Below are positions 1 to 17,426 of a DNA stretch of 64,000 nucleotides, piece after piece. The translations under genes were made by a program, and so were the position numbers. The stretch comes from an uncultured Candidatus Saccharibacteria bacterium (GTDB lineage: Bacteria; Patescibacteriota; Minisyncoccia; Phycocordibacterales; Zambryskibacteraceae). The DNA is taken from contig CAYHDI010000001.1 in NCBI GenBank assembly GCA_964355645.1, positions 28,778 to 92,777 on the forward strand, in the 5' to 3' direction. The notes beneath the pieces are model-generated. The model was not told the origin of the DNA and made no database searches. It saw nothing but the letters and a program-made list of their open reading frames with translations. Every line of letters starts with the position of its first letter. Position 1 is the first letter of the stretch.

Positions 1-252
1 TTTCGTCCATGATTCGCTTCGACCGCCATCTCTCCGAAGAGTTAAGGTCGGTCGGCACCACAAGGAATCATTAGAAAGCAACGAAAGACTGGGAACGCGC
101 TTTGAAACCGCCAACCAGAAACTTACGTGAAAGGTCAAAAGAAGGAAGTCGGTTTCAGATATTTTTAATCAAGGGCACCTACCAGTCGTCAAAAAATTCC
201 AAGGGCCTAAGTTTAGAAGAATATTGACTTCGAGGAAATCCGGCTTTGTGCA

Positions 253-277
253 CCACGACCCCCAATCGTGGTTTTTT
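253..277 (+). terminator. intrinsic terminator hairpin CCACGA-CCCCCAA-TCGTGG followed by T6
   Basis: perfect 6-bp stem plus T-run seen in sequence; ends an upstream plus-strand transcript of unknown identity. Confidence 0.55.
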
Positions 278-314
278 CATAGAATTTGTGTCTATCATAT
301 TTTCCCTCTTTTAT

Positions 315-350
315 ACTCTTCTTACTGCCTATAGGTAATTATTAGCGTAT
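315..350. repeat. 36-bp direct repeat copy A (ACTCTTCTTACTGCCTATAGGTAA..CGTAT), contains palindrome CCTATAGG; abuts stop codon of PaaX-like gene
   Basis: near-identical copy at 919-954; seen directly. Confidence 0.85.
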
Positions 351-916
351 TATGACAAACCAAATTCTTGACGCAAGTGACGATCATTTTCTATCTCATC
401 AGCAATAATATATAAGACATCCTTCCCTACCCCAAAGTCTGTTTTAAGTAACCCAATAATATCTTCACAGTCATAAGGATAAACCCATACACTATCCTGC
501 AATCGATATAATCCTGCTTGATTAAACAGCGAACAAATTTGCTTACGAATCTTCTTTTTCTTTTCTGGGATATCAAAGATTACAAGTCTCCATTTCTTAT
601 CCCATCTCTTGGGTTTATTGAATTTATAATCTGTAATTTCCCATAAACGCAAAACTCTTTCACCTTCATCGGTCAATTGATAACGGCCATTCTCAAACTT
701 GAGCAATCCTCTTTTTGTTAGTTTTGATGCTGAAGACAAAATATATTCATTCTGACGAGCTTTGGGTAATAATCCGAGCCTGTCCATTGCACTCAAAACA
801 TTTGGAGCAACAAGCCCAATGCTCAAAACCCCTGCAACTTGAATAGTATTAAGAACGATTTTCTGCAAATGTTCCCGCTTAGCTTTTTTCTTGTGATTTA
901 TTTCTAATTTACCCAT
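350..916 (-). CDS. PaaX-family-like regulator: N-terminal winged HTH plus C-terminal Cas2-like/PaaX_C domain
   Basis: motif W-RLVIFDIPE...R..I...L...G...LQDSVWVYP resembles PaaX C-terminal (Cas2-like fold) consensus; purine-rich RBS inside upstream repeat. Confidence 0.6.
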   Translation of the reverse strand: MGKLEINHKKKAKREHLQKIVLNTIQVAGVLSIGLVAPNVLSAMDRLGLLPKARQNEYILSSASKLTKRGLLKFENGRYQLTDEGERVLRLWEITDYKFNKPKRWDKKWRLVIFDIPEKKKKIRKQICSLFNQAGLYRLQDSVWVYPYDCEDIIGLLKTDFGVGKDVLYIIADEIENDRHLRQEFGLS

Positions 917-918
917 AC

Positions 919-954
919 ACTCTTCTTACTGCCTATAGGTAAATTATAACGTAT
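919..954. repeat. 36-bp direct repeat copy B, immediately upstream of PaaX-like start codon (carries its RBS)
   Basis: matches 315-350 with ~4 differences. Confidence 0.85.
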
Positions 955-960
955 GTGAGA

Positions 961-994
961 GAAAAAAGAATCCCCGCACCAATTGGTGCGGGGG
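961..994 (-). terminator. intrinsic terminator (minus strand): hairpin CCCCGCACC-AATT-GGTGCGGGG then T6
   Basis: perfect 9-bp GC stem plus TTTTTT on minus strand, directly downstream of small GC-rich ORF. Confidence 0.75.
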
Positions 995-1015
995 CCGCGT
1001 TGTGCGGGTTGCCGA

Positions 1016-1189
1016 CTACTTGTCGGCAGCGTCGAAGAACGGAGCGAGTTCGGCTTCGAGTTCAGGGAATCTCTCAATGAGATCGTCGGTGAGCCGACCG
1101 AGATTCTGGCGAAGTTCCATGACGGCGCTCTTGGGAGGCGCTTCGTTTCGTTTGACATAGAACTCTCCTCCCATTCCTGGGATAGCCAT
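1016..1189 (-). CDS. small GC-rich ORF (57 aa, MAIPGMGGEFYVKRNEAPPKSAVMELRQNLGRLTDDLIERFPELEAELAPFFDAADK), hypothetical
   Basis: ORF below the 60-aa track threshold found by manual translation; ends 20 nt before its own terminator; local GC far above window average. Confidence 0.4.
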   Translation of the reverse strand: MAIPGMGGEFYVKRNEAPPKSAVMELRQNLGRLTDDLIERFPELEAELAPFFDAADK

Positions 1190-1295
1190 TCCTGGCTTGT
1201 AATGGGCATTCCTGCCCGGGAACCATTCTCCTGCATACTATCATGGTTTAGTATAAAAGTCAAGGCTAAATTGGACAATAGTTAAAATATGGCTA

Positions 1296-1400
1296 TAATA
1301 GGTCGCACTATGCTTGAATATAGTGAAATTACTGAACACAAATACATTGTTTTCGAAAATGAGCCGTACGAGGTTTTGGGTGCACACGTCTTTAGAAAAC
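1296..1400 (+). pseudogene. duplicated 5' fragment of efp (first ~35 codons, ~85% nt identity to 3177-3281) fused to a Lys/Arg/Asn-rich tail (ORF 1289-1483)
   Basis: protein MLEYSEITEHKYIVFENEPYEVLGAHVFRKQ identical to EF-P N-terminus at 3177; diverges after codon ~37. Confidence 0.75.
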
Positions 1401-1472
1401 AAGAAGATTTCAAACGAAATCCTAAAAGAAATAAAGGAAAAACTAAAAGAAATTTAACAAACAATTTTCAAA

Positions 1473-2300
1473 CTATTTTGTGAGAGATTGAATCTTGGCG
1501 CGAGTGATTGGACCCATGATTCCTATTGCATCTATCCCATTAGCTTTTTGGAATTTAATGAGAGCTGCTTTAGTTAAAGTACCGAAGGTAATCGTTTCTT
1601 TACCCGTCGAACCGTCCCCTGTTTCTGCAATTAAAAAACCCTGACTATTAAGGAACTTCTGCAGATTCTTCACGTCTTCGCCTTTTGAACCAGAGCTCAA
1701 ATTATGTTTGAAGGAAGTATTTAGAGATGCACTAGTAGTCACGGCTTCAAGAGATGGGTTTGTTTGCATGATAGCAATCTGTGCTTTAAGCTTCGCAATT
1801 AAAGCTTTAATTTCTGCAATAGTGGTTGTGTTGGTGATCGCAGGGGCAACAGGGTTTGCATTTATTCTATGACTAGAGCCACCGCTTGAGCTTGAGAGAG
1901 TAGACAAAGTACAGGTACTTGATGTAGGAGTAACCGTTACTGTCACTGTGCTTCCATTATTGTAAGAAGAGAAAGTGGTTACAGACGCTGAGCTTGAACA
2001 ACTTGCTGAAGTGGTATACAAACCTCCACTCACGCTAGGAGCCAGTACCCTCTTGTCTGATGAACTCACAGTTACAGTTGAATTATCCAAAAGAACAAAG
2101 GTGAAGTTGTCTGCATTAACGATAATAGACTGAACAACAGCACTTGAGCCGGAAATATTGAGATTAATTCCCCCGACAGTGATGACCGTATCTGTAGTGA
2201 GAGTAACGTCATTGTAAGCCCCAAATGCTACAAAAGGCATCAGGCTTATACTCAATCCCAACACCAACGTTCCCAGTAGAACTTTTGTTGTTTTATACAT
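1473..2300 (-). CDS. secreted Ser/Thr-rich protein with C-terminal peptidoglycan-binding (PG_binding_1-like) domain
   Basis: N-terminal signal peptide; C-terminal motif DVKNLQKFLNSQGF...FGTLTKAALIKFQKANGIDAIGIMGPIT matches PG_binding_1 consensus. Confidence 0.7.
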   Translation of the reverse strand: MYKTTKVLLGTLVLGLSISLMPFVAFGAYNDVTLTTDTVITVGGINLNISGSSAVVQSIIVNADNFTFVLLDNSTVTVSSSDKRVLAPSVSGGLYTTSASCSSSASVTTFSSYNNGSTVTVTVTPTSSTCTLSTLSSSSGGSSHRINANPVAPAITNTTTIAEIKALIAKLKAQIAIMQTNPSLEAVTTSASLNTSFKHNLSSGSKGEDVKNLQKFLNSQGFLIAETGDGSTGKETITFGTLTKAALIKFQKANGIDAIGIMGPITRAKIQSLTK

Positions 2301-2339
2301 GGAGTGATGATTAATTATTAAGAATCAGTTAATCTCACT

Positions 2340-3113
2340 CTAGTTACGAATCATTACAATGTTGTATGTCCCAGCAGCAGGTGTACATGCCAATGCGGTC
2401 AATGTTGTGAAATCTAGTTGCAATATATCATTGGCAGATACACGATAACCTGTCATTGGACAAAGTGAAGTTGGAACAGGTCCATTAACGATTATCTTAT
2501 CCGTTGTTAATAAACTAGCAACTGCAAACGTCTGTTGAGTTGTTCCAATCGCGGCCGCAGTGGCAACTGGCGTTATAGCACCAGTCGTGAGAACAGAAAT
2601 TTTCGTAACAGCTGTTCCTCCACCAATTGCTATTGATGTCGCGGTTGCTACACCGAGAGCGGGGGTAATCAATACTGGAGATGTCATCGTTTGCACACCA
2701 GTGAATGTGTTGGCCGCATCGGTACGAGCAATTGTTGCAGATGTACTAGGAAAGGTCATCGTGGTGCCATCAGTACCAGCGAAGGTAAGAGTACTATTCG
2801 CTGTAAGAGTTTTCCCAGTAGCAAGAGTTAACACTCCTGTTCCTGTAGTAATAGTGTTGCCATTAATACTGGTGGCAGTTACCGTGCCTAAAGTGCTAGC
2901 ACCGGTGACTGTTAATGTCCCGCCCGTGTTGATATTGGTACTAATGGTCGTTGCTGCATTTACTATGCCTGTGACAAACAAAACCGAAACAATGACCGCT
3001 AGCCCAACACTAACCGGGCCTCGGCTAACAATCGTATTAAAGATATTTTTTATGGATGTCATGATGTCAAATTTATTAAAGAGGCATAATTCCTCTGCAA
3101 ATAATTGTACCAT
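2340..3113 (-). CDS. secreted Thr/Gly/Ala-rich repeat protein (putative surface/adhesin-like); start probably at MTSIKNIF (3062)
   Basis: signal peptide plus low-complexity T/G repeats; no recognisable catalytic motifs. Confidence 0.55.
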   Translation of the reverse strand: MVQLFAEELCLFNKFDIMTSIKNIFNTIVSRGPVSVGLAVIVSVLFVTGIVNAATTISTNINTGGTLTVTGASTLGTVTATSINGNTITTGTGVLTLATGKTLTANSTLTFAGTDGTTMTFPSTSATIARTDAANTFTGVQTMTSPVLITPALGVATATSIAIGGGTAVTKISVLTTGAITPVATAAAIGTTQQTFAVASLLTTDKIIVNGPVPTSLCPMTGYRVSANDILQLDFTTLTALACTPAAGTYNIVMIRN

Positions 3114-3176
3114 ACTGTTCTTTTATATATTAGGGAAATTGACAGACTGGGGATAACCCATTAAACTCCTATAACC

Positions 3177-3761
3177 ATGCTCGAATACAGCGAAATTACT
3201 GAACACAAATACATTGTTTTTGAAAATGAACCGTACGAGGTTTTGGGCGCCCATGTTTTCAGAAAACAACAGAGAAAGCCGGTGAACGCGACCAAACTGC
3301 GAAGTATGCTGACAGGTAGAATTGTAGAACATTCATTCCATGTTTCTGATAAGGCTGAAGAGGCTGATATCACCAAGAAGGAAGTGAAATATCTTTATAC
3401 GAACAAGGGCGAATTCTGGTTCTGTGAATCGAAAGATCCATCGAAAAGATTTGAACTGCCTGAAGTGATGATTGGAACTGCATCTAAATTTTTAAAACCA
3501 AATACAATTGTGGATGCCATGATTTGGGATGATGGGAAATCTGATGAAGGGAAAATCATTGGCCTGAAACTTCCAATTAAGATGGATTTGAAAGTGACCG
3601 AAGCTCATCCAGCGACGAAAGGCAACACTGCACAGGGTGCAAGCAAAATGGTCGTGCTCGAAACCGGCGCTGAAATCCAAGTCCCTATGTTTATCAAAGA
3701 AGGCGATGTCATTCGGGTAAATACTGACAACGGCGAGTATACGGATAGAATAACTAATTAG
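3177..3761 (+). CDS. efp: translation elongation factor P
   Basis: full-length alignment to EF-P (KLRSMLTG, YLYTNKGEFWF, GEYTDR motifs). Confidence 0.9.
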   Translation: MLEYSEITEHKYIVFENEPYEVLGAHVFRKQQRKPVNATKLRSMLTGRIVEHSFHVSDKAEEADITKKEVKYLYTNKGEFWFCESKDPSKRFELPEVMIGTASKFLKPNTIVDAMIWDDGKSDEGKIIGLKLPIKMDLKVTEAHPATKGNTAQGASKMVVLETGAEIQVPMFIKEGDVIRVNTDNGEYTDRITN

Positions 3762-3788
3762 ATTTAAAGAACTAAAATAAATTTAGTT

Positions 3789-4079
3789 TTAAGAAAATTT
3801 ATTTTCTTGATTATCTTCTAAAATATCAAACAATAATCCAACGAAAATTCCCACAATAATCCAATAGAAGAGAATGAAAATTGGCTCGTGAGCTATCACA
3901 AACGAGACATCTCCGAAAACTTTGTAGATAACCATGAGGGGCATGAACACGGGTGTGAGAAATGGATCAGCGAAGCATCCCTGCCCCGCCGATGCTGGGC
4001 AAGTGATTTTCAAAATGAACAAAACTCCAACGAGAGCTGGAGCGAAGAATGCACCTTGAATGGCATAAGGAATTTTCAT
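3789..4079 (-). CDS. small hydrophobic membrane protein, hypothetical
   Basis: ORF with 3 predicted TM segments. Confidence 0.45.
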   Translation of the reverse strand: MKIPYAIQGAFFAPALVGVLFILKITCPASAGQGCFADPFLTPVFMPLMVIYKVFGDVSFVIAHEPIFILFYWIIVGIFVGLLFDILEDNQENKFS

Positions 4080-4100
4080 GCATAAATTATAACTTATTCT

Positions 4101-4202
4101 GGTAACAAAAAAGCAGTTTTCGTGCCTCTCGGAAAGCTTGGCTTGAGAGGAGAAGTTTTCAACAGAGAACTATCGTGCAAAGAAAACTGCTTTTTTGTTA
4201 CC
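4101..4202. terminator. long inverted repeat (21-nt perfect arms GGTAACAAAAAAGCAGTTTTC / GAAAACTGCTTTTTTGTTACC enclosing a 60-nt structured core); candidate bidirectional terminator or small structured RNA
   Basis: seen directly; T-runs follow the inner stem on both strands; lies between rpsR stop and next gene. Confidence 0.5.
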
Positions 4203-4401
4203 TAGTAATATAAGGCAAGAATCCCATGAACCTTGCGCGTTTGATGGCCAAGGAAATCATTTGTTGAGACTTCGAAGAGATACCACTGCGCTTTTTGGAT
4301 TGAATCCTGGCGTGCGGGGTAAGGAATTTCTTCAAGGTATCTACATCCTTATAATCAACATAATTAATTTTGTGCTCTTTAAGAAAATCTGATTTTTTCA
4401 T
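4198..4401 (-). CDS. rpsR: 30S ribosomal protein S18
   Basis: INYVDYKDVDTLKKFLT...AIKRARFMGFLPY matches S18. Confidence 0.92.
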   Translation of the reverse strand: MKKSDFLKEHKINYVDYKDVDTLKKFLTPHARIQSKKRSGISSKSQQMISLAIKRARFMGFLPYITR

Positions 4402-4425
4402 TTTACTTGTAGCGAGTTAATCGAA

Positions 4426-4875
4426 CTAAAACGGGATATCTTCTGGGCTAATATTTTCTTCAGGATAATCTATGGTGTCTATGGATGGAGCTTCAGGAGC
4501 TGGATTTTCTTTCTTCGAAGCAGTCGAAGATCCTGACGGTACTCCGGAAGGACGGGGTCCGAATTGCACTCTGTCAGCCACAATTTCTGTACGATATTTC
4601 TTCGTCCCATCTGCGGCATCCCAACTTCGAGTTTGCATTCTACCTTCGACCAAGGCACTGGCTCCTTTGCGGAGATACTGCCCGGCTGTCTCAGCCTGTC
4701 GACCGAAAACCACAATATTGTGATAGTCCGCAGATTCTTGTTTCGCTCCATTCTTGTCTTTCCAAACTCGATTAGTAGCTAGAGAGAAAGAACAAACTTG
4801 AATTCCAGATGGAAGAGATTTAATCTCGGGATCTCGAGTAAGATTGCCTATGACTATGGCTTTGTTTAAATACAT
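4426..4875 (-). CDS. ssb: single-stranded DNA-binding protein
   Basis: OB-fold SSB signature (IVIGNLTRDPE...YHNIVVFGRQAE) and acidic C-terminal DIPF tail; start at MYLNK (4875), ORF track extension overlaps rpsF. Confidence 0.9.
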   Translation of the reverse strand: MYLNKAIVIGNLTRDPEIKSLPSGIQVCSFSLATNRVWKDKNGAKQESADYHNIVVFGRQAETAGQYLRKGASALVEGRMQTRSWDAADGTKKYRTEIVADRVQFGPRPSGVPSGSSTASKKENPAPEAPSIDTIDYPEENISPEDIPF

Positions 4876-4882
4876 AAAGATA

Positions 4883-5398
4883 TTATATATTATTTCCAGA
4901 CGTTTCAGTCGTAATTTCTGGCTCCTGGGCTTTCCCGACGCCTTCCAGGGTCGGGACTCCGATCTCTTCGAGCATCGGAGCTTCTTGTGCTCGACGAGCT
5001 TCACGTGCTTCAGCAAAGGTGAAAGTTGTCTCTCGAGGAGCTTTAATGAGCAAGAATCGAAGAATTTCTTCAATTTTCTCTATGCCAGCCTTAATCTCTT
5101 CAACTGCTGAAGGTTCAGCCTCGAATTTCATCCAACCGATATAAGCCTCGTTAACCACATATTTTCTCGCCCCAACAGTTTTGGACATCGAATATGCGAG
5201 TGTCTCGAGGAATGGCAATTCAGAATCTAGAGTCTTGCCTCCAGCTTTTTCTATTGTAGAAACAATTGTAGAGACCACTTTTGGAATATTGTCTTCGGTC
5301 ACACTTGGAAGGACCAAGTATCCGAGTTCATAAACAATAGCTTCCTTGTGGTCTTCTGTAATGGACATGAGTAAATCGTTAATCATTAATAATCTCAT
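4883..5398 (-). CDS. rpsF: 30S ribosomal protein S6 with acidic/Glu-rich C-terminal extension
   Basis: YELGYLVLP...GG...LAYS pattern of S6; classic rpsF-ssb-rpsR order. Confidence 0.85.
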   Translation of the reverse strand: MRLLMINDLLMSITEDHKEAIVYELGYLVLPSVTEDNIPKVVSTIVSTIEKAGGKTLDSELPFLETLAYSMSKTVGARKYVVNEAYIGWMKFEAEPSAVEEIKAGIEKIEEILRFLLIKAPRETTFTFAEAREARRAQEAPMLEEIGVPTLEGVGKAQEPEITTETSGNNI

Positions 5399-5471
5399 AT
5401 GCGCTTCCCCTATTTCAGAGATGCGTACAGAAGCCTGTCCGCCGTAGCCTTGGCGAAGGCGGGAGGTTTGG

Positions 5472-6254
5472 CTACTTTAGCACTAAGTTAAACATTCGGC
5501 AAGTGTTGGAAACTAAGGCTTTTTGGACAGTTTCCAAATCCTCTCCTCTTATTTCAGCGATTTTCTTCACTACCTCTTGCACATAGCTCGGCTCGTTGCG
5601 CTTGCCTCTATAAGGAACTGGCGAGACCCATGGGGCATCAGTCTCGGACATAATCATATTGAGTGGTGCATTCTTAATCACTTCATCATAATCTCGAGCA
5701 AAGGTTATCACTCCCGTGAATGACGTGGTGAATCCTATGGTCCAAAATCTTTTGGCTTGTTCGAGTGAACCGGTGAAAAAATGCAAATCCCCTCGAAGTT
5801 TTGGACCGTACAATTTAGCCAATGGTTCAAGGATTTCGAGAATTTCTTCGTACGCATCACGAGAGTGAATCATGATAGGTTTGTTGTGTTTAATAGCAAA
5901 GTTAATCTGCTCAAAGAAAAGATTTTTCTGTCTTTCAAAGTCTGTTGTTTTGTCTGTATGAAAAAAATCTAGCCCGCATTCCCCTATCGCGACTACTTTC
6001 GGGTGGTTTATTAATTCTTCAAATTTGTCTTCCTCAAAAACTATTTTGGGATCATCGACCGGATGAACACCAATACACGCATAAATTTCTTCGTGTTTTT
6101 CTGCGAGTTCTACTGCCCGTTTAGATGATTCGAAGTCTACACCCACTACAATTGTATGGGTTCCAGTTTCCTTGAGCCGATTGATGACTTCTTCTAAATC
6201 TTCACTGTAGTCAGGCAAATTTAAATGCGAATGTATATCAAAATATTTAGGCAT
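5472..6254 (-). CDS. tatD: TatD-family metal-dependent hydrolase/DNase
   Basis: FDIHSHL, GECGLDF, TDAP motifs. Confidence 0.88.
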   Translation of the reverse strand: MPKYFDIHSHLNLPDYSEDLEEVINRLKETGTHTIVVGVDFESSKRAVELAEKHEEIYACIGVHPVDDPKIVFEEDKFEELINHPKVVAIGECGLDFFHTDKTTDFERQKNLFFEQINFAIKHNKPIMIHSRDAYEEILEILEPLAKLYGPKLRGDLHFFTGSLEQAKRFWTIGFTTSFTGVITFARDYDEVIKNAPLNMIMSETDAPWVSPVPYRGKRNEPSYVQEVVKKIAEIRGEDLETVQKALVSNTCRMFNLVLK

Positions 6255-7706
6255 TTATAGTGAGCTTGTCGAACTATCTTTTCTTAAAAATAATGGTTCG
6301 CTTGGTTTCTTGTTTTCTTTTATTAGTTTCTGTATTTTTAATGCTGTATCAGGCATAAATGGGGCGAGCGCGTCTGCTACTCCACGAAGACCCGTGACTA
6401 ATTCGGAAATAATTTCTTTCGCTTTTTCTGGATCAGTTTTAACTAATTTAAATGGTTCTGTTTCTTGAATTTTTTTATCTAATTCTGCAATTTTTTCCCA
6501 AACTAAATTCATCGCCTTGGCTATTTCAAATTTTTCTAATTCACTTCCAATGGCCAACACTCGGTGTTGGCCAATTGGAACATCCGAATATTTTTCGGCC
6601 ATAGTCATAATTCTTGAGGTCAAATTCCCTATCCCATTCGCTAATCCTGAATTATAAGCTTCATTAAATCTCTCCCAGGTGAAATCGGAGTCTTCAAAAG
6701 TTGAGAGTTCCCTGCACACAAAGTATCTAAGAGCTTCAGCACCGTATTTCTCAACCACTTCTACGGGGTTTATCACGTTGCCTAGGGACTTGGACATTTT
6801 TTGACCATTTGCGCCCTGTATAAAGCCATTTATGACTATTTGATAAGAGGTTGGAAGACCGGCAGACATAAGCATGGCTTGCCACATAGCTGATTGTTGT
6901 CTAAGATTGTCCTTGCCCGCGTATTGAGTTGGATTGCCGTTGGCCCAATACTTTTCAAAATTTTCTTTGTTTTCGGGCCAACCGAGAGTGGAAACATAAT
7001 TAACCAAAGCATCAAACCAAACGTACATCACGTGGTCTTCATCTCCGGGAACAGGAATCCCCCAACTCATTTTTGACTTTAAGCGCGAGATAGAGAAATC
7101 TTCCAGTCCCCTTTCTACGAATGCTTTAATCTCATTAAACCGAAAATCCGGCACTACAAAATTTGGATTATTCTTGTACAAATCCAAAAGAGGTTTTTGA
7201 TATTTAGAGAACCTAAAGAAATAATTTTCTTCTTCTCTTTCTTCTAATTCAAGATTTGTATGAATACTACATCTTCCATTTTCAAGTTCTGAATCCGTTT
7301 TCTCCAATTCACAACCAATACAATATTTAATCTTGTAATTCTTTTTATATATATCTCCATTTGCCTCACATCTCTTCCAAAATTCTTGAGCCGATTTTAT
7401 ATGATGTTCATCTGTGGTGCGAATAAAATGTATTTCTGGGTCAATATGTAAATCAATAAGTATTTGTTTAAAATATTGGACGTATTCATCAACATAGCTT
7501 TGGGGGTCTTTGTTCTCTTCTACAGAACGTTGGTATATTTTTATTCCGTGTTCATCTGTGCCTGTATTAAAAAATACTTCAAAACCAATCAATTTTTTAT
7601 AACGATTTACAACATCGGCTCGTATAAATTCCATAGCGTGTCCTATGTGAGGTTGTCCGTTTACATACGGCAGGGTCGTGGTGATATAAAAACTTTTTCG
7701 GCTCAT
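6255..7706 (-). CDS. metG: methionyl-tRNA synthetase (core only, no C-terminal tRNA-binding domain); contains in-frame palindrome at 6552-6572
   Basis: P-x-x-NG-x-PHIGH, zinc knuckle CxxC, KMSKS. Confidence 0.92.
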   Translation of the reverse strand: MSRKSFYITTTLPYVNGQPHIGHAMEFIRADVVNRYKKLIGFEVFFNTGTDEHGIKIYQRSVEENKDPQSYVDEYVQYFKQILIDLHIDPEIHFIRTTDEHHIKSAQEFWKRCEANGDIYKKNYKIKYCIGCELEKTDSELENGRCSIHTNLELEEREEENYFFRFSKYQKPLLDLYKNNPNFVVPDFRFNEIKAFVERGLEDFSISRLKSKMSWGIPVPGDEDHVMYVWFDALVNYVSTLGWPENKENFEKYWANGNPTQYAGKDNLRQQSAMWQAMLMSAGLPTSYQIVINGFIQGANGQKMSKSLGNVINPVEVVEKYGAEALRYFVCRELSTFEDSDFTWERFNEAYNSGLANGIGNLTSRIMTMAEKYSDVPIGQHRVLAIGSELEKFEIAKAMNLVWEKIAELDKKIQETEPFKLVKTDPEKAKEIISELVTGLRGVADALAPFMPDTALKIQKLIKENKKPSEPLFLRKDSSTSSL

Positions 7707-7713
7707 TGTTTGT

Positions 7714-8766
7714 TTAGAGACTAGAGTCTGAAAAACGGGCGGCTTTGTTTTTCTCCAAGTCGTTTATTAACTCCATGAAAACCGCAGCCACAGGCACGGA
7801 GATGACTATTCCGAGGAAACCGGCGAGTTGTCCTCCAATCAGAAGCGCGAGGATAGAAATCATTGGGGGCACACCTACCACCTTTTTCACTACCAAAGGA
7901 TAAATAAGTTGATTCTCAAATTGTTGAACAATGACGAAAAGTCCAGCCACAATGAGAGCTTGAGACATTCCTCCGCCAGTGAAAGCTACGAGAATTGCAG
8001 GAATGGCGGCCAGGATTGGCCCGAAGAGAGGAATAATCTCAAACATCCCCGCTGCAACAGCCAGGAGAAGAGGGTGTTCAACCCGAACTAGGAGCAGACC
8101 TAAATATACCAAAACTGCAATGATGGCCGCGAGCAGAATTTGTCCCTGCATCCAAAGTCCGATTTTTTTCTTTGAGCGATCCCACAAATCCAAAATATAT
8201 TTTTCTTGTTTCCACGGAGTGACCACTCGGAGGAACATTCCCACCCCATCTTCCTGAACAGCCAAGTAGAAAGACAGAACAATTATGAGAACAAAACTAA
8301 ATACTCCACCAAAAAGAAAAGTGGCACTAGTAAACACTCCGGTTGAAAGAGTTGAGACAAATGAATTGATATGATCAGCGATGCTTTGAGCAGAAATCGA
8401 ATTAGTTACAGAACCGAAGAAATTTGAGAGGTTCGGGTCACTCACGAGAGCTTTTGAATATTCAGGAAAGGCACGAATGAAATTCGAAATTTCTCCGAGC
8501 AAAGGGAGGAATAGGAAATAGAAAAGCCCAGCGAACAATATCCCTGTGATGATATAAACTCCAAGGATGGTTGGTAATCGGGGAAAAGACATTTTCTTCG
8601 CCCAGACAGCCGCCGGTTCAATCGCCGAAGCTATCACTATGGAAACAAGGATGACCAAGACTAAATCCCGAAGAATAAACAGGGCTACCGCAGCCAAAAT
8701 GATGAGGACTCCTCTCACCCAGCTCCCAGTAGTTATAGTCAATTTGTGATTTTCGGCTTCTTTCAT
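7714..8766 (-). CDS. AI-2E family transporter (UPF0118/PerM-like)
   Basis: 8 TM segments and conserved C-terminal VGVPPMISILALLIGGQLAGFLG segment. Confidence 0.8.
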   Translation of the reverse strand: MKEAENHKLTITTGSWVRGVLIILAAVALFILRDLVLVILVSIVIASAIEPAAVWAKKMSFPRLPTILGVYIITGILFAGLFYFLFLPLLGEISNFIRAFPEYSKALVSDPNLSNFFGSVTNSISAQSIADHINSFVSTLSTGVFTSATFLFGGVFSFVLIIVLSFYLAVQEDGVGMFLRVVTPWKQEKYILDLWDRSKKKIGLWMQGQILLAAIIAVLVYLGLLLVRVEHPLLLAVAAGMFEIIPLFGPILAAIPAILVAFTGGGMSQALIVAGLFVIVQQFENQLIYPLVVKKVVGVPPMISILALLIGGQLAGFLGIVISVPVAAVFMELINDLEKNKAARFSDSSL

Positions 8767-14045: not shown

Positions 14046-17000
14046 TTAAGAATTACGAATTGTGATATTCGTAGCCCTTTTAATCTCTTCATTATATTTC
14101 TTAAATATTTCTCTTTCTTCATCTGGCACAACATAAGACATCACATCTTTTGGTTTTAGATTCTTTTCTTTTCTCATTTCTTGAATCGAACGAATAATGT
14201 CTCGAACTTTGCCTTCCTCGGCAAGTTCTGGAGTGATATTTGAATCCACTAATACATCTTCAGAAACTACATATTTAATTTCTTTTACATTCACTTCATC
14301 TTTTATAAGTTCTTCATAAACATCTAATCGTTGCATTGATAAAGATTGAAGCGGTTGTCTTATTTTGATTCCGGCTTTTGCTCTTGCTTCTAAACCTCGA
14401 GAAACAATCTCTCTCGTTTTATTCATTCTTGAGATAATATCTCCATTTACATTTTTATCTTCTAAAGGCCACACATCCAAATGCACACTTTCCAAATCCT
14501 CTTCTGTTCGAAGTTTCTGATACAGTTCTTCTGCATAGAATGGAGTGAATGGTGCGAGGAGCTTAGAAATTGTTTTCAAGACAAAATACAAAGTCTGCTT
14601 CGCATCTTCGTCTCCTTCTTTGATTCGCTCGCGGGAACGACGAAGATACCAAGTCGAAAGGTCATCGACGAAATCTCGAATGGCACGGGTAGGTTCGAGA
14701 AGTTTGTAGTTATCAAGATTCTCTGTAGTTAACTTAATTAACTCATTCAATCTTATGAGAATCCATTGGTCGAGAATATTTCCACTCCCCGACACCCCAC
14801 CCTTGCCCTCCCCTTGATAAGGGGAGGGTTGGGAGGGGTCAGCATAAAGTTCATAGAAAGAATAAATGTTGTCGAGCATATTGAATACTCGTTTATTAAC
14901 TTCATCCACCGTCTTGTCATCAAAGTTTTTTGAATCCCCTGGTTGATTGATTGAGTACATCCAGAAACGCACCGCATCTGCGCCGTGTTTCTCCATAGAT
15001 TCAAACGGGTCTACCACATTACCCACTGACTTGCTCATTTTTTTGCCTTCCTTGTCCAAGAGTAAACCGAGGCAAATCACATTTTTGTAGGCTGCACCTC
15101 GATTCATGAGCACTCCTATCGCGTGCATGGTATAGAACCATCCACGAGTTTGATCAAGTCCTTCAGAGATAAAATCAGCTGGATAAAGAATTTTTGAGAA
15201 ATCCCCCGCTTTTTCTCGATTGTCAGAATCTTGAGAGAAAGGCATTGAACCGGAATCAAACCAAACATCCATCACTTCCTTCACTCGTTTGTATTCCTTC
15301 CCATTTTTCTCTAGGACAACTTCATCAATAAATGGTTTATGCAGATCAAGTTCAAAATTCGCGTTGTGCGGAAAAGGAACAAAATCTATTTCTTTTATTT
15401 CTGCATTCTTAGGATAATTTTCTGCTTCTATGTCATCCCCTATTTGTTCAGCAGTCAAACCTTTTGAACCAAGAATCATGTTCATGATTGGGGCACCATG
15501 ACTTATAAACAAAATATTTTTACCTGAATATTTGTTTTCATATTCTTCTAAGACTGTCATCACCCGAAACTTTGTATCGGTATAATTTTCCCCATCAGGG
15601 TTATTTTGTTTGTATCTATCTGAATAATGTTCATATCTAACCAAAAAATCATCCATTTTTTGGTTTTGATATTTATGGCCCGGATCAAATTCAATCAAAC
15701 GGTTATCTACGATGATTTCATTTTCGAAACCAATGGTTTCTTTAATAAGTTCTGAAGTTTCTTGTGCTCGCAGAATTGGAGAACGAATAATAATATCAAT
15801 TTTCTTATTCTTCAAACTTTCGGCCATTTTTTTCACTTGTTCTATACCCAACTCCGTCAAATGATTATTTGGATCTCCTTCTGAATCCCAAACCTTATTC
15901 ACATTATTCATGGCTTGACCATGTCGAACAGCGAAATATTTGTTGCCGGATTTTTTGGAATATTTCTTCAGGGTTTCAACCGAATCAACGACGATTCTAT
16001 CCTTCCCATCTATTGATGATTCTGCAAGCCAGATTGGAAGAGGTGTGCCCCAATATCTTTCTCGACTAATGGCCCAATCTTTCGCTTCTCGGAGCCATTC
16101 ACCAAAACGACCTTCCTTAATGTGAGAAGGTTCCCAATTTATCTTTTCATTTTCTTTGACCAATTTGTCTCGGAGCTCTGACATCCTGATGTACCAAGAA
16201 TCACGGGCATAATAAATCAATCGAGTCTTGCATCTCCAACAAAACGGATATGAGTGAGTATAATTTTCTTTCTCAAAAAGCAAGCTCCGATTTTGTAAAT
16301 CTTTCAAAATATCTACTGCCAGAGTTTCGTCCACCACCGAACGACCTTCGAGCCAATCCGTGCCTTTCATAAATGTTCCTTCCGGAGTGACTAGGTGAAC
16401 CTTTGGTAAGCCGACTTTCGTCCCAAGTTCGAAGTCATCTTGTCCATACATCACAGCTGTATGTACAATGCCCGTCCCATCTTCGGTGTTCACAAAATCC
16501 GCAGGGTAAACCCTGAAAGCCTTATCATCTTTTTTAATAAATGGATAAAGCGGTTCATATTCAAGGCCGACCAAATCCTGACCTTTAATTTTCTCAATAA
16601 TCTCGTATTCTCCTTCAACCACTTTCAATCTTGATTCAGCCAAAATTAAAATTTCATTTTCTTTTTTTATTTTTACATAATCAATTTTCTCCCCCACAGC
16701 AAGCCCGACGTTCCCCGGGAGAGTCCACGGTGTAGTGGTCCAAGCAAGCAAATATGTTCCCGGCTCATCGACTAGTTCAAACTTCGCTGTAATGGTTAAA
16801 TCCTTTACATCTTTGTACCCTTGAGCAAGTTCGTGGGTTGAGAGAGTGGTGCCACAACGCGGACACCAAGGTACAACTTTGTAATCTTTATAGAGTAAAT
16901 TCTGCTTTTCAACTTCGGAGAGAATCGACCAGATAGATTCCATAAACGGATTATGATAAGTCACATACGCGTTGTCATAATCCGCCCAATATCCCATACG

Positions 17001-17426
17001 GTCGCTTAATCTTCTCCATTCATCCACATAAGTCCAAACGGATTTTTTGCACTCATCATTAAATTTCTCTACGCCGTATTCTTCAATTTCTTTTTTGCTT
17101 TTTAGTCCAAGCTTTTTCTCCACTTCGAGTTCTACAGGTAAACCATGAGTATCCCAACCAGCTTTTCTGCGGACATGAAATCCGCGCATGGTTTTGTAAC
17201 GCGGAATAGCGTCCTTAAACGCGCGAGCTTCGACGTGATGAATACCCGGCTTGCCGTTCGCAGTCGGGGGTCCTTCATAAAACACAAATTCACCCTTGTC
17301 AGCGGGCTTCTTTAGAGTCTTTTCAAATATTTTATTGTCTTTCCAGAACTGGAGAATTCTTTCTTCTCTCTCTGATCTGGTAAGCCTTTTATCTTCAGGT
17401 TTACCCTGAGTCTCATCGAAGGGCAT
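14046..17426 (-). CDS. ileS: isoleucyl-tRNA synthetase with inserted histidine-phosphatase domain and in-frame palindromic element
   Basis: class I motifs (P-x-x-NG-x-xHHV, W-ISRERYWG, KMSKS); 190-aa RHG...SHG insert at 15372-15938; palindrome at 14796-14839. Confidence 0.9.
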   Translation of the reverse strand: MPFDETQGKPEDKRLTRSEREERILQFWKDNKIFEKTLKKPADKGEFVFYEGPPTANGKPGIHHVEARAFKDAIPRYKTMRGFHVRRKAGWDTHGLPVELEVEKKLGLKSKKEIEEYGVEKFNDECKKSVWTYVDEWRRLSDRMGYWADYDNAYVTYHNPFMESIWSILSEVEKQNLLYKDYKVVPWCPRCGTTLSTHELAQGYKDVKDLTITAKFELVDEPGTYLLAWTTTPWTLPGNVGLAVGEKIDYVKIKKENEILILAESRLKVVEGEYEIIEKIKGQDLVGLEYEPLYPFIKKDDKAFRVYPADFVNTEDGTGIVHTAVMYGQDDFELGTKVGLPKVHLVTPEGTFMKGTDWLEGRSVVDETLAVDILKDLQNRSLLFEKENYTHSYPFCWRCKTRLIYYARDSWYIRMSELRDKLVKENEKINWEPSHIKEGRFGEWLREAKDWAISRERYWGTPLPIWLAESSIDGKDRIVVDSVETLKKYSKKSGNKYFAVRHGQAMNNVNKVWDSEGDPNNHLTELGIEQVKKMAESLKNKKIDIIIRSPILRAQETSELIKETIGFENEIIVDNRLIEFDPGHKYQNQKMDDFLVRYEHYSDRYKQNNPDGENYTDTKFRVMTVLEEYENKYSGKNILFISHGAPIMNMILGSKGLTAEQIGDDIEAENYPKNAEIKEIDFVPFPHNANFELDLHKPFIDEVVLEKNGKEYKRVKEVMDVWFDSGSMPFSQDSDNREKAGDFSKILYPADFISEGLDQTRGWFYTMHAIGVLMNRGAAYKNVICLGLLLDKEGKKMSKSVGNVVDPFESMEKHGADAVRFWMYSINQPGDSKNFDDKTVDEVNKRVFNMLDNIYSFYELYADPSQPSPYQGEGKGGVSGSGNILDQWILIRLNELIKLTTENLDNYKLLEPTRAIRDFVDDLSTWYLRRSRERIKEGDEDAKQTLYFVLKTISKLLAPFTPFYAEELYQKLRTEEDLESVHLDVWPLEDKNVNGDIISRMNKTREIVSRGLEARAKAGIKIRQPLQSLSMQRLDVYEELIKDEVNVKEIKYVVSEDVLVDSNITPELAEEGKVRDIIRSIQEMRKEKNLKPKDVMSYVVPDEEREIFKKYNEEIKRATNITIRNS

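Follow-up and report, generated by a model that had tools for sequence, protein, structure and literature searches.

Homology-facilitated illegitimate recombination (HFIR) was reportedly described by de Vries and Wackernagel in 2002 for natural transformation of Acinetobacter baylyi and Streptococcus pneumoniae. In this mode one end of the exchange is anchored by homology while the other is joined at a short microhomology, and foreign DNA is added and not substituted. Here we describe a locus in a stretch of 64,000 nucleotides (nt) from an uncultured Candidatus Saccharibacteria bacterium placed by GTDB in the Zambryskibacteraceae of the Patescibacteriota (contig CAYHDI010000001.1 of GCA_964355645.1, positions 28,778 to 92,777, hereafter the window), in which efp, the gene of elongation factor P (EF-P), is preceded by a truncated copy of its own 5' end that is fused to a detached 3' end of recA. 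We consider it likely that this locus is a chimera of two sister-lineage versions of a recA-efp hotspot, made by one illegitimate join together with homologous exchange.

Compared with HFIR, the locus is alike in that the homology anchor would lie in efp or recA and that the other end carries a 9-nt microhomology, and it is different in that the event is read from natural genomes of uncultivated Parcubacteria and was not observed in an experiment, and in that a sister-lineage donor with the same flanking genes would have left a partial duplication of both core neighbours. Transformation of S. pneumoniae also generates merodiploidy, with tandem duplications in which one copy of an essential gene stays intact (Johnston et al. 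2013, PMC3784515); both cases combine intact and disrupted gene copies, bordering direct repeats and recombination with incoming DNA, but the S. pneumoniae duplications are 100-900 kb long and come from homologous pairing between repeats derived from insertion sequences, whereas here the unit is ~1.9 kb, its joint lies at a 9-nt microhomology and the cargo differs between the two units. Hotspots that gain genes through recombination in flanking core genes, including illegitimate ends, form a further framework (Oliveira et al. 2017, as outlined in PMC12359135), and our locus resembles them in the variable accessory genes between recA and efp and in recombination tracts that end inside the core flanks; the framework as outlined there is a clean double homologous crossover, while here one illegitimate crossover left gene-end duplicates. 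Finally, genomic islands that insert at gene ends and supply a replacement copy likewise have gene-end repeats bracketing cargo and a displaced fragment at one border, but our locus has no recombinase and no conserved core, and its border is the 3' end of a neighbouring chromosomal gene. The locus is thus a new, well-resolved and clearly preserved case of an already known, ordinary type of event, and not a new molecular system.

The layout was read from the window and from its source contig (ENA ERZ1292618, Hainich groundwater, 189 kb). The order is FtsK, an open reading frame (ORF) of 114 amino acids (aa), recA with its tail a1, gap G1, a0, e1/a2, gap G2, a promoter-like site and the intact efp. 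The complete recA (342 aa, ending in the a1 tail ENKKISAQILKEIKTKLKEV and a stop) ends 85 nt left of the window. G1 comprises ~430 nt, a PaaX-like gene and a GC-rich 57-aa ORF, G2 comprises a peptidoglycan (PG)-binding gene and a tail-fibre-like gene, and the two gaps have no mutual similarity. The parts that carry the argument are as follows, L001 being the closest related genome.

1268-1299, plus strand: a0, a decayed recA 3'-end relic that still appears to form an efp promoter (promoter scan 11/12)
1310-1402, plus strand: e1, truncated efp copy, codons 1-31 (MLEYSEITEHKYIVFENEPYEVLGAHVFRKQ), with the same residues as 3177-3269 and 10 synonymous differences
1394-1402, plus strand: junction microhomology AGAAAACAA, from the alignment of e1/a2 with efp and L001 recA
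1395-1457, plus strand: a2, detached recA 3' end (ENKKISNEILKEIKEKLKEI and stop), RecA residues 323-342 plus stop
3139-3167, plus strand: promoter-like site of the intact efp, hexamers TTGACA-17-TAAACT, 9 nt from the end of the -10 to the ATG
3177-3761, plus strand: intact efp, 194 aa, Pfam EFP_N, EFP and Elong-fact-P_C; its codons 1-31 (3177-3269) are copy e2

The direct repeat spans 1307-1402 versus 3174-3269, that is 96 nt of which 85 are identical (89%), at a spacing of 1867; blastn matched the copies with E = 9e-26 and found no third copy in the 64-kb window. A first-pass annotation of this DNA had placed a duplicated efp 5' end at 1296-1400 and 3177-3281 and had assigned 37 EF-P residues to the upstream copy; the repeat is real, the coordinates were ~14 nt out of register, and only 31 efp codons are present, starting exactly at ATG 1310, with the efp homology ending sharply at 1402/3269. 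In the coding portion (1310-1402 versus 3177-3269) 83 of 93 nt are identical, and each of the 10 differences is a synonymous third-position change (0 non-synonymous), both copies coding for the identical 31 residues. When 10 substitutions were placed at random, an all-synonymous outcome was obtained in 0 of 100,000 placements. In a neutrally evolving fragment the per-site rates of non-synonymous and synonymous change are expected to be about equal, and e1 has no non-synonymous change, frameshift or stop; the earlier description of the fragment as pseudogene-like holds for its truncation and fails for its decay. Distinct-species pairs (such as L014/L015, L029/L037 and L062/L063) differ over efp codons 1-31 by 0 non-synonymous and 8-18 synonymous changes. 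The lack of neutral decay in e1 therefore points to divergence that arose inside functional efp genes of different lineages. The residues LGAH, a derived state common to all three fragment alleles, were found in 0 of the 40 closest species representatives listed. The product of the intact efp is 89% identical to L001 EF-P, with conserved downstream synteny.

What follows the 31 codons comes from recA. In L001 recA lies upstream of efp and its product ends with ENKKVSNEILKEIKAKLRE and a stop, and window 1395-1457, in the frame of ORF 1314-1457, encodes ENKKISNEILKEIKEKLKEI, the RecA residues 323-342, with the stop in the usual place (RecA tblastn match to 1368-1451, E = 2e-4). The Lys/Arg-rich tail that the first-pass annotation noticed in ORF 1289-1483 (or 1310-1483) is indeed present in the efp frame, and what it had missed is that this tail is the recA 3' end read in that frame. 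The 9-mer AGAAAACAA forms efp codons 29-31 (AGA AAA CAA) and, in recA, the codons around 322-325, and the exact 9-mer occurs in L001 recA as ..CG AGAAAACAA AAAAG... Efp codon 31 is joined to recA codon 323 within AGAAAACAA, and this bears out the earlier suggestion of an insertion or recombination footprint in front of efp. On these alignments the breakpoint reads as an illegitimate join of the efp 5' end to the recA 3' end at a 9-nt microhomology. Its length falls within the short microhomologies (roughly 3-10 nt) by which junctions of HFIR or insertion-duplication are recognised, and a homologous anchor is available as well, the added unit being flanked by clade-conserved efp and recA sequence.

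Between the detached tail a2 and a1, the tail of the complete recA, 4 of 20 residues and many synonymous sites are different, and at the nucleotide level a2 is closer to the recA tail of L001 (score 35) than to a1 (score 23). Cut off from recA, a2 can serve no function, yet it has kept a perfect RecA C-terminus. As a2 is a normal tail that has diverged from a1, the recA tails, too, would have diverged while part of functional genes in different lineages. We read this most simply as separate evolution of e1/e2 and of a1/a2 within functional genes of different, closely related lineages that were later united.

To place the locus we compared 80 loci of Parcubacteria/Zambryskibacteria type, which a scan of species-representative genomes had returned. 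In 72 of the 80, recA precedes efp on the same strand, and 5 of the remaining 8 have <400 nt of upstream sequence; judged from these loci, recA-efp adjacency is the ancestral gene order. The order downstream of efp is conserved as well (small membrane protein, S18, SSB, S6, TatD). The recA-efp gap ranges from 17 nt to ~4 kb and is <=30 nt in 11 loci, and the expanded gaps contain mainly minus-strand ORFs of many unrelated families, among them distant homologues of the window's G2 cargo genes in the gaps of L024 and L080. Therefore, with unrelated cargo families in a variable gap between two core genes, we regard recA-efp as a hotspot of gene gain. The first-pass annotation had named the presence of the same two cargo genes before an unduplicated efp in relatives as the observation that would indicate local decay in place of insertion, and 0 of the 80 relatives have this pair directly upstream of efp. 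We also considered a duplicated recA tail next to efp as a general rule of these loci and rejected it, only 10% of the 51 gap-containing loci having reached p <= 0.05.

Strain variants carry the argument further. At least 6 assemblies, made independently and with differing wells, replicates and pipelines (Hainich H52 and H43 at ENA, and Logan runs), contain the identical junction. Diverged variants are among them, as is a 189-kb contig whose name gives a coverage of ~18x, and all 9 contigs that encode the exact EF-P have the cassette. The H43 variants are ~97.5% identical to the window from ~1364 rightwards, through a2 and G2, and are 17-24% diverged to the left of breakpoints at ~1267 (L087) or 1363 (L088/L089), with synonymous changes only in e1. 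L087 is 24% diverged over 1199-1267 and unrelated farther left, and L088 and L089 have 9 differences in e1 codons 2-18, all synonymous, 4 of which match the e2 state. Among the strains the a2 region has a sole substitution, 1439 A>G, which leaves the RecA residue unchanged and turns K into E in the fragment frame. These breakpoints within and just upstream of e1 show what we read as repeated recombination of diverged functional efp alleles into the site.

A third, nested efp start was observed in L088 (124-195, also in L089, 1-35). Its junction consists of the promoter and ATGCT (base 5, codon 2), a 66-nt insert with a GC-rich hairpin (CCCCCAGTAGAACAGCGAAGCTGTCTACGGGG) at its start and with a different leader, and then the allele e1'. 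Moreover, an independent duplication of the efp 5' end was seen at 6672-8194 of L062, which belongs to another species (EF-P 63% identical). There a 266-nt repeat of the promoter and efp codons 1-65 (6672-6937 / 7928-8194) brackets an insert of ~990 nt with 55-62% GC, whose 237-aa minus-strand ORF had no match in Pfam, PHROG or PADLOC; over efp codons 1-65 the two copies have nine differences, all synonymous, seven of them within the last seven codons.

According to the reading that we favour, the chimera of two sister lineages, lineage X would have supplied recA, the PaaX-like gene with the remnant ORF, a promoter and efp, and lineage Y would have supplied recA, the PG-binding gene and the tail-fibre-like gene, a promoter and efp. 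One illegitimate crossover within AGAAAACAA would have linked efp of X, at codons 29-31, to recA of Y, at codons 322-325, and the other end of the exchange would have been resolved through ordinary homologous recombination in efp or recA. HFIR could have achieved this in one event, if homology in efp (or recA) held one end of the incoming fragment and the other end was joined at AGAAAACAA; Campbell-type integration (insertion-duplication) of a circularised segment of recA tail, cargo and efp 5' end could have done so too, as could a small tandem duplication in situ, after which one unit was exchanged for another allele, and these three routes yield the same structure and are not separable here. 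Since efp is presumably essential, only products that regenerate a full efp with its promoter would survive; the displaced 31-codon start would then stay upstream, fused out of frame to the orphaned recA tail, and every breakpoint inside efp would come with a duplicated 5' end. The sequences show directly how the parts are arranged, the microhomology at the join, the ancestral order of recA and efp, divergence by synonymous changes only and mosaics among strains; which way the DNA moved, how it entered the cell and in what order the events took place is inferred. Natural transformation would be a plausible route of entry by analogy, as natural competence and homologous recombination have been demonstrated in Patescibacteria, specifically in Saccharibacteria (PMC10633639), and the window encodes a type IV pilus ATPase.

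Several points weigh against the chimera. Parcubacteria/Paceibacteria are not known to be competent, the search for a parental lineage found none (the cassette being in all contigs with the exact EF-P), a metagenome scan for the e1 3' end gave only the known H43 contig, and cargo gene 2 has no close homologue. As to which side is foreign, the sliding-window comparison of recA is saturated and only suggestive. In addition, 31 codons are a small sample, and purifying selection on an expressed fragment is possible.

This last point belongs to a purely local history, which we think unlikely, namely an in-situ tandem duplication of recA tail, spacer and efp 5' end by slippage at the 9-nt microhomology, with the copies diverging in place while a functional 57-aa peptide or its transcription was under selection. 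The topology recA-G1-e1/a2-G2-efp is exactly that of the novel joint of a tandem duplication, but the units are not collinear copies, the contents of G1 and G2 being entirely different, and a1 and a2 are strongly diverged, yet the functionless a2 is still a perfect recA tail. The alleles e1, e1' and e2 encode the same residues despite 9-10 nt differences per pair, and the fragment retains a near-consensus promoter at canonical distance; in L088, however, the 66-nt insertion separates the canonical promoter from e1' and the changes are still all synonymous, which fits import of functional alleles and not selection on the fragment. The 1439 A>G change, non-synonymous in the fragment frame and synonymous in that of recA, also runs counter to such selection. 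Selection on an expressed 57-aa peptide is unnecessary and is disfavoured by the disrupted promoter of L088 and by the intact, functionless a2.

Expression of the truncated fragment, which the first-pass annotation had held possible, is plausible. The hexamers TGGACA-16-TATAAT, with the -35 at 1272-1277 and the -10 at 1294-1299, end 10 nt before ATG 1310, and ATG 1289, at which the longer ORF begins, falls within the promoter spacer. In the 50 nt that precede e1 there is similarity to the recA-tail/efp-leader of both L034 and L014 (0 of 200 shuffles reached the score). The promoter-like site of the intact efp has the same geometry and is otherwise unrelated in sequence, being unalignable with the fragment promoter beyond the hexamers. 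From its own, strong promoter the fragment may be expressed as a 57-aa peptide (ORF 1310-1483), and antisense read-through into the PG-binding gene is probable. Its residues are those that we take, by analogy with solved EF-P structures, to be the first strands of the EF-P KOW-like domain. No function of the fragment needs to be invoked, and we find it decidedly unlikely that it is more than a scar, whether as a selected micro-protein of 57 aa (by analogy, a possible combination of those first KOW-like strands with a basic tail from the out-of-frame recA end), as an antisense-control promoter of the surface-protein genes, or as a built-in homology arm. If the homology arm were real, the surface-protein cassette would spread among strains by transformation and would never inactivate efp.

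We further observed that in many relatives a TANAAT hexamer begins 14-15 nt before the efp ATG (in the window, 1294-1299 and 3162-3167); within -26 to -12 of efp it is found in 33 of 78 relatives versus 2% of background. In loci where the two genes abut, this hexamer takes its first half from the recA stop TAG, so a -10-like promoter element would be embedded in the recA 3' end. No Shine-Dalgarno sequence was seen before efp in the relatives, and the efp mRNA is probably near-leaderless.

A site-specific integrative element (or a remnant of one) that targets the efp 5' end, with the repeats as its attL and attR and with a replacement efp start on board, is very improbable. Gene-end direct repeats around foreign-looking cargo are typical of such islands, but no integrase, transposase or other recombinase was found in the ORFs of 350-3113 (Pfam, PHROGs, PADLOC), and the left border is chromosomal recA joined at a microhomology and not the end of an element. 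L062 likewise has an efp-5' repeat around an insert; the illegitimate breakpoints, however, lie at codon 31 in the window, codon 2 in L088 and codon 65 in L062, so there is no common core site. The gap cargo of the 80 relatives is heterogeneous, with only RAYT/IS200-like ORFs in four loci as recombinase-like cargo (family judged by sequence inspection). That assembly merged two co-occurring strains at the efp repeat is hardly conceivable even in a sample that holds several related strains, for the e1/a2 join shares only 9 nt, too short to mislead an assembler, and the recurrence of the identical junction in independent assemblies across wells, replicates and pipelines excludes an assembly artefact.

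A template/variable repeat (TR/VR) pair of a diversity-generating retroelement was also considered and rejected. The e1/e2 mismatches are not confined to template adenines, being mostly T/C transitions at third codon positions, with A in either copy at only one.

The cargo of the two gaps consists of four minus-strand genes or ORFs.

350-916, minus strand: PaaX-like gene with Cas2-like domain, G1 cargo (Pfam PaaX_M, E = 5e-18; PADLOC Cas2, E = 2e-6)
1016-1189, minus strand: GC-rich 57-aa ORF of G1, 56% GC versus ~40% locally, with an intrinsic terminator at 972-993(-)
1473-2300, minus strand: cargo gene 1 of G2, signal peptide, Ser/Thr-rich, C-terminal PG_binding_1 (Pfam, E = 1e-10)
2340-3113, minus strand: cargo gene 2 of G2, predicted secreted or membrane-anchored, Thr/Gly-rich, no Pfam match

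The PaaX-like gene sits between the full-length recA and the efp fragment and is immediately bracketed by 39-nt direct repeats (312-350 and 916-954, 87% identical, beginning TAYACTCTTCTTACTGCCTATAGGTAA), which look as if they were a duplicated promoter/leader module or the trace of a lost neighbouring paralogue. The 57-aa ORF of G1 matched gap ORFs of L010 and L013 in blastp (E 2-3e-4, in a small database), and window 1153-1374 has DNA homology with the efp upstream region of L010; from these matches the ORF appears to be the C-terminal remnant of a family that occupies the recA-efp gap in L001, L010 and L013. The first-pass annotation was right about G2, where two minus-strand genes lie between the efp copies, both with hydrophobic, signal-like N-terminal segments (translations inspected by eye) and one with the C-terminal PG_binding_1 domain. 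Cargo gene 1 matches PHROG endolysin families solely via this PG-binding domain. Cargo gene 2, which likely starts at ATG 3062, has 923 partial homologues, none above 61% identity except itself, and 121 matches in viral contigs. Its Thr/Gly-rich motif at residues ~70-160 has 50-86% identity to proteins on >100 IMG/VR viral contigs, and some of its cellular homologues carry Peptidase_S74 (tail-fibre chaperone) domains; the surface protein would therefore have a tail-fibre-like module. A phage origin of the cassette was considered and rejected, as the viral contigs share only the generic tail-fibre-like motif and the PG-binding domain. PADLOC and other scans of the locus ORFs gave no defence cargo between recA and efp.

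Several further features were observed around the locus. A GC-rich, gene-free stretch of ~360 nt extends from the recA stop to a plus-strand terminator-like hairpin at 252-272 (L081 10568-11001; window ~-84 to 349) and could be a structured RNA; the Rfam scan gave no credible match for it, nor anything meaningful in window 1-8000, and no tRNA lies near the locus. Downstream of efp, between the small membrane-protein gene and rpsR, there is a perfect 21-nt inverted repeat (GGTAACAAAAAAGCAGTTTTC, 4101-4121 / 4182-4202, 60-nt loop) without Rfam match, which could be a long hairpin, a bidirectional terminator or a small mobile element. In two relatives (L017 6614-7337 and L019 6892-7922) the match to the TatD gene downstream of efp falls into two pieces that lie apart, which suggests an insertion in tatD or a disruption of it. 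Farther into the window, a class I aminoacyl-tRNA synthetase (IleRS-like, 1126 aa, 14046-17426, minus strand) contains a His_Phos_1 domain of the histidine-phosphatase superfamily (E = 3e-29, residues 499-662), an insert that splits two parts of the catalytic domain.

In annotation, ORF 1289-1483 (64 aa) is best recorded as an efp/recA fusion remnant and not as a new gene. For uncultivated, ultra-small groundwater bacteria the locus is a clean case, found in nature, of recombination that was one-sided (illegitimate plus homologous), and its strain-level mosaics document additional exchange at the same place. The -10-like element that would be embedded in the recA 3' end helps to explain why some insertions left gene-end duplicates. 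Further, the identification of recA-efp as a hotspot of gene gain in Parcubacteria/Zambryskibacteria bears on gene flow in Patescibacteria.

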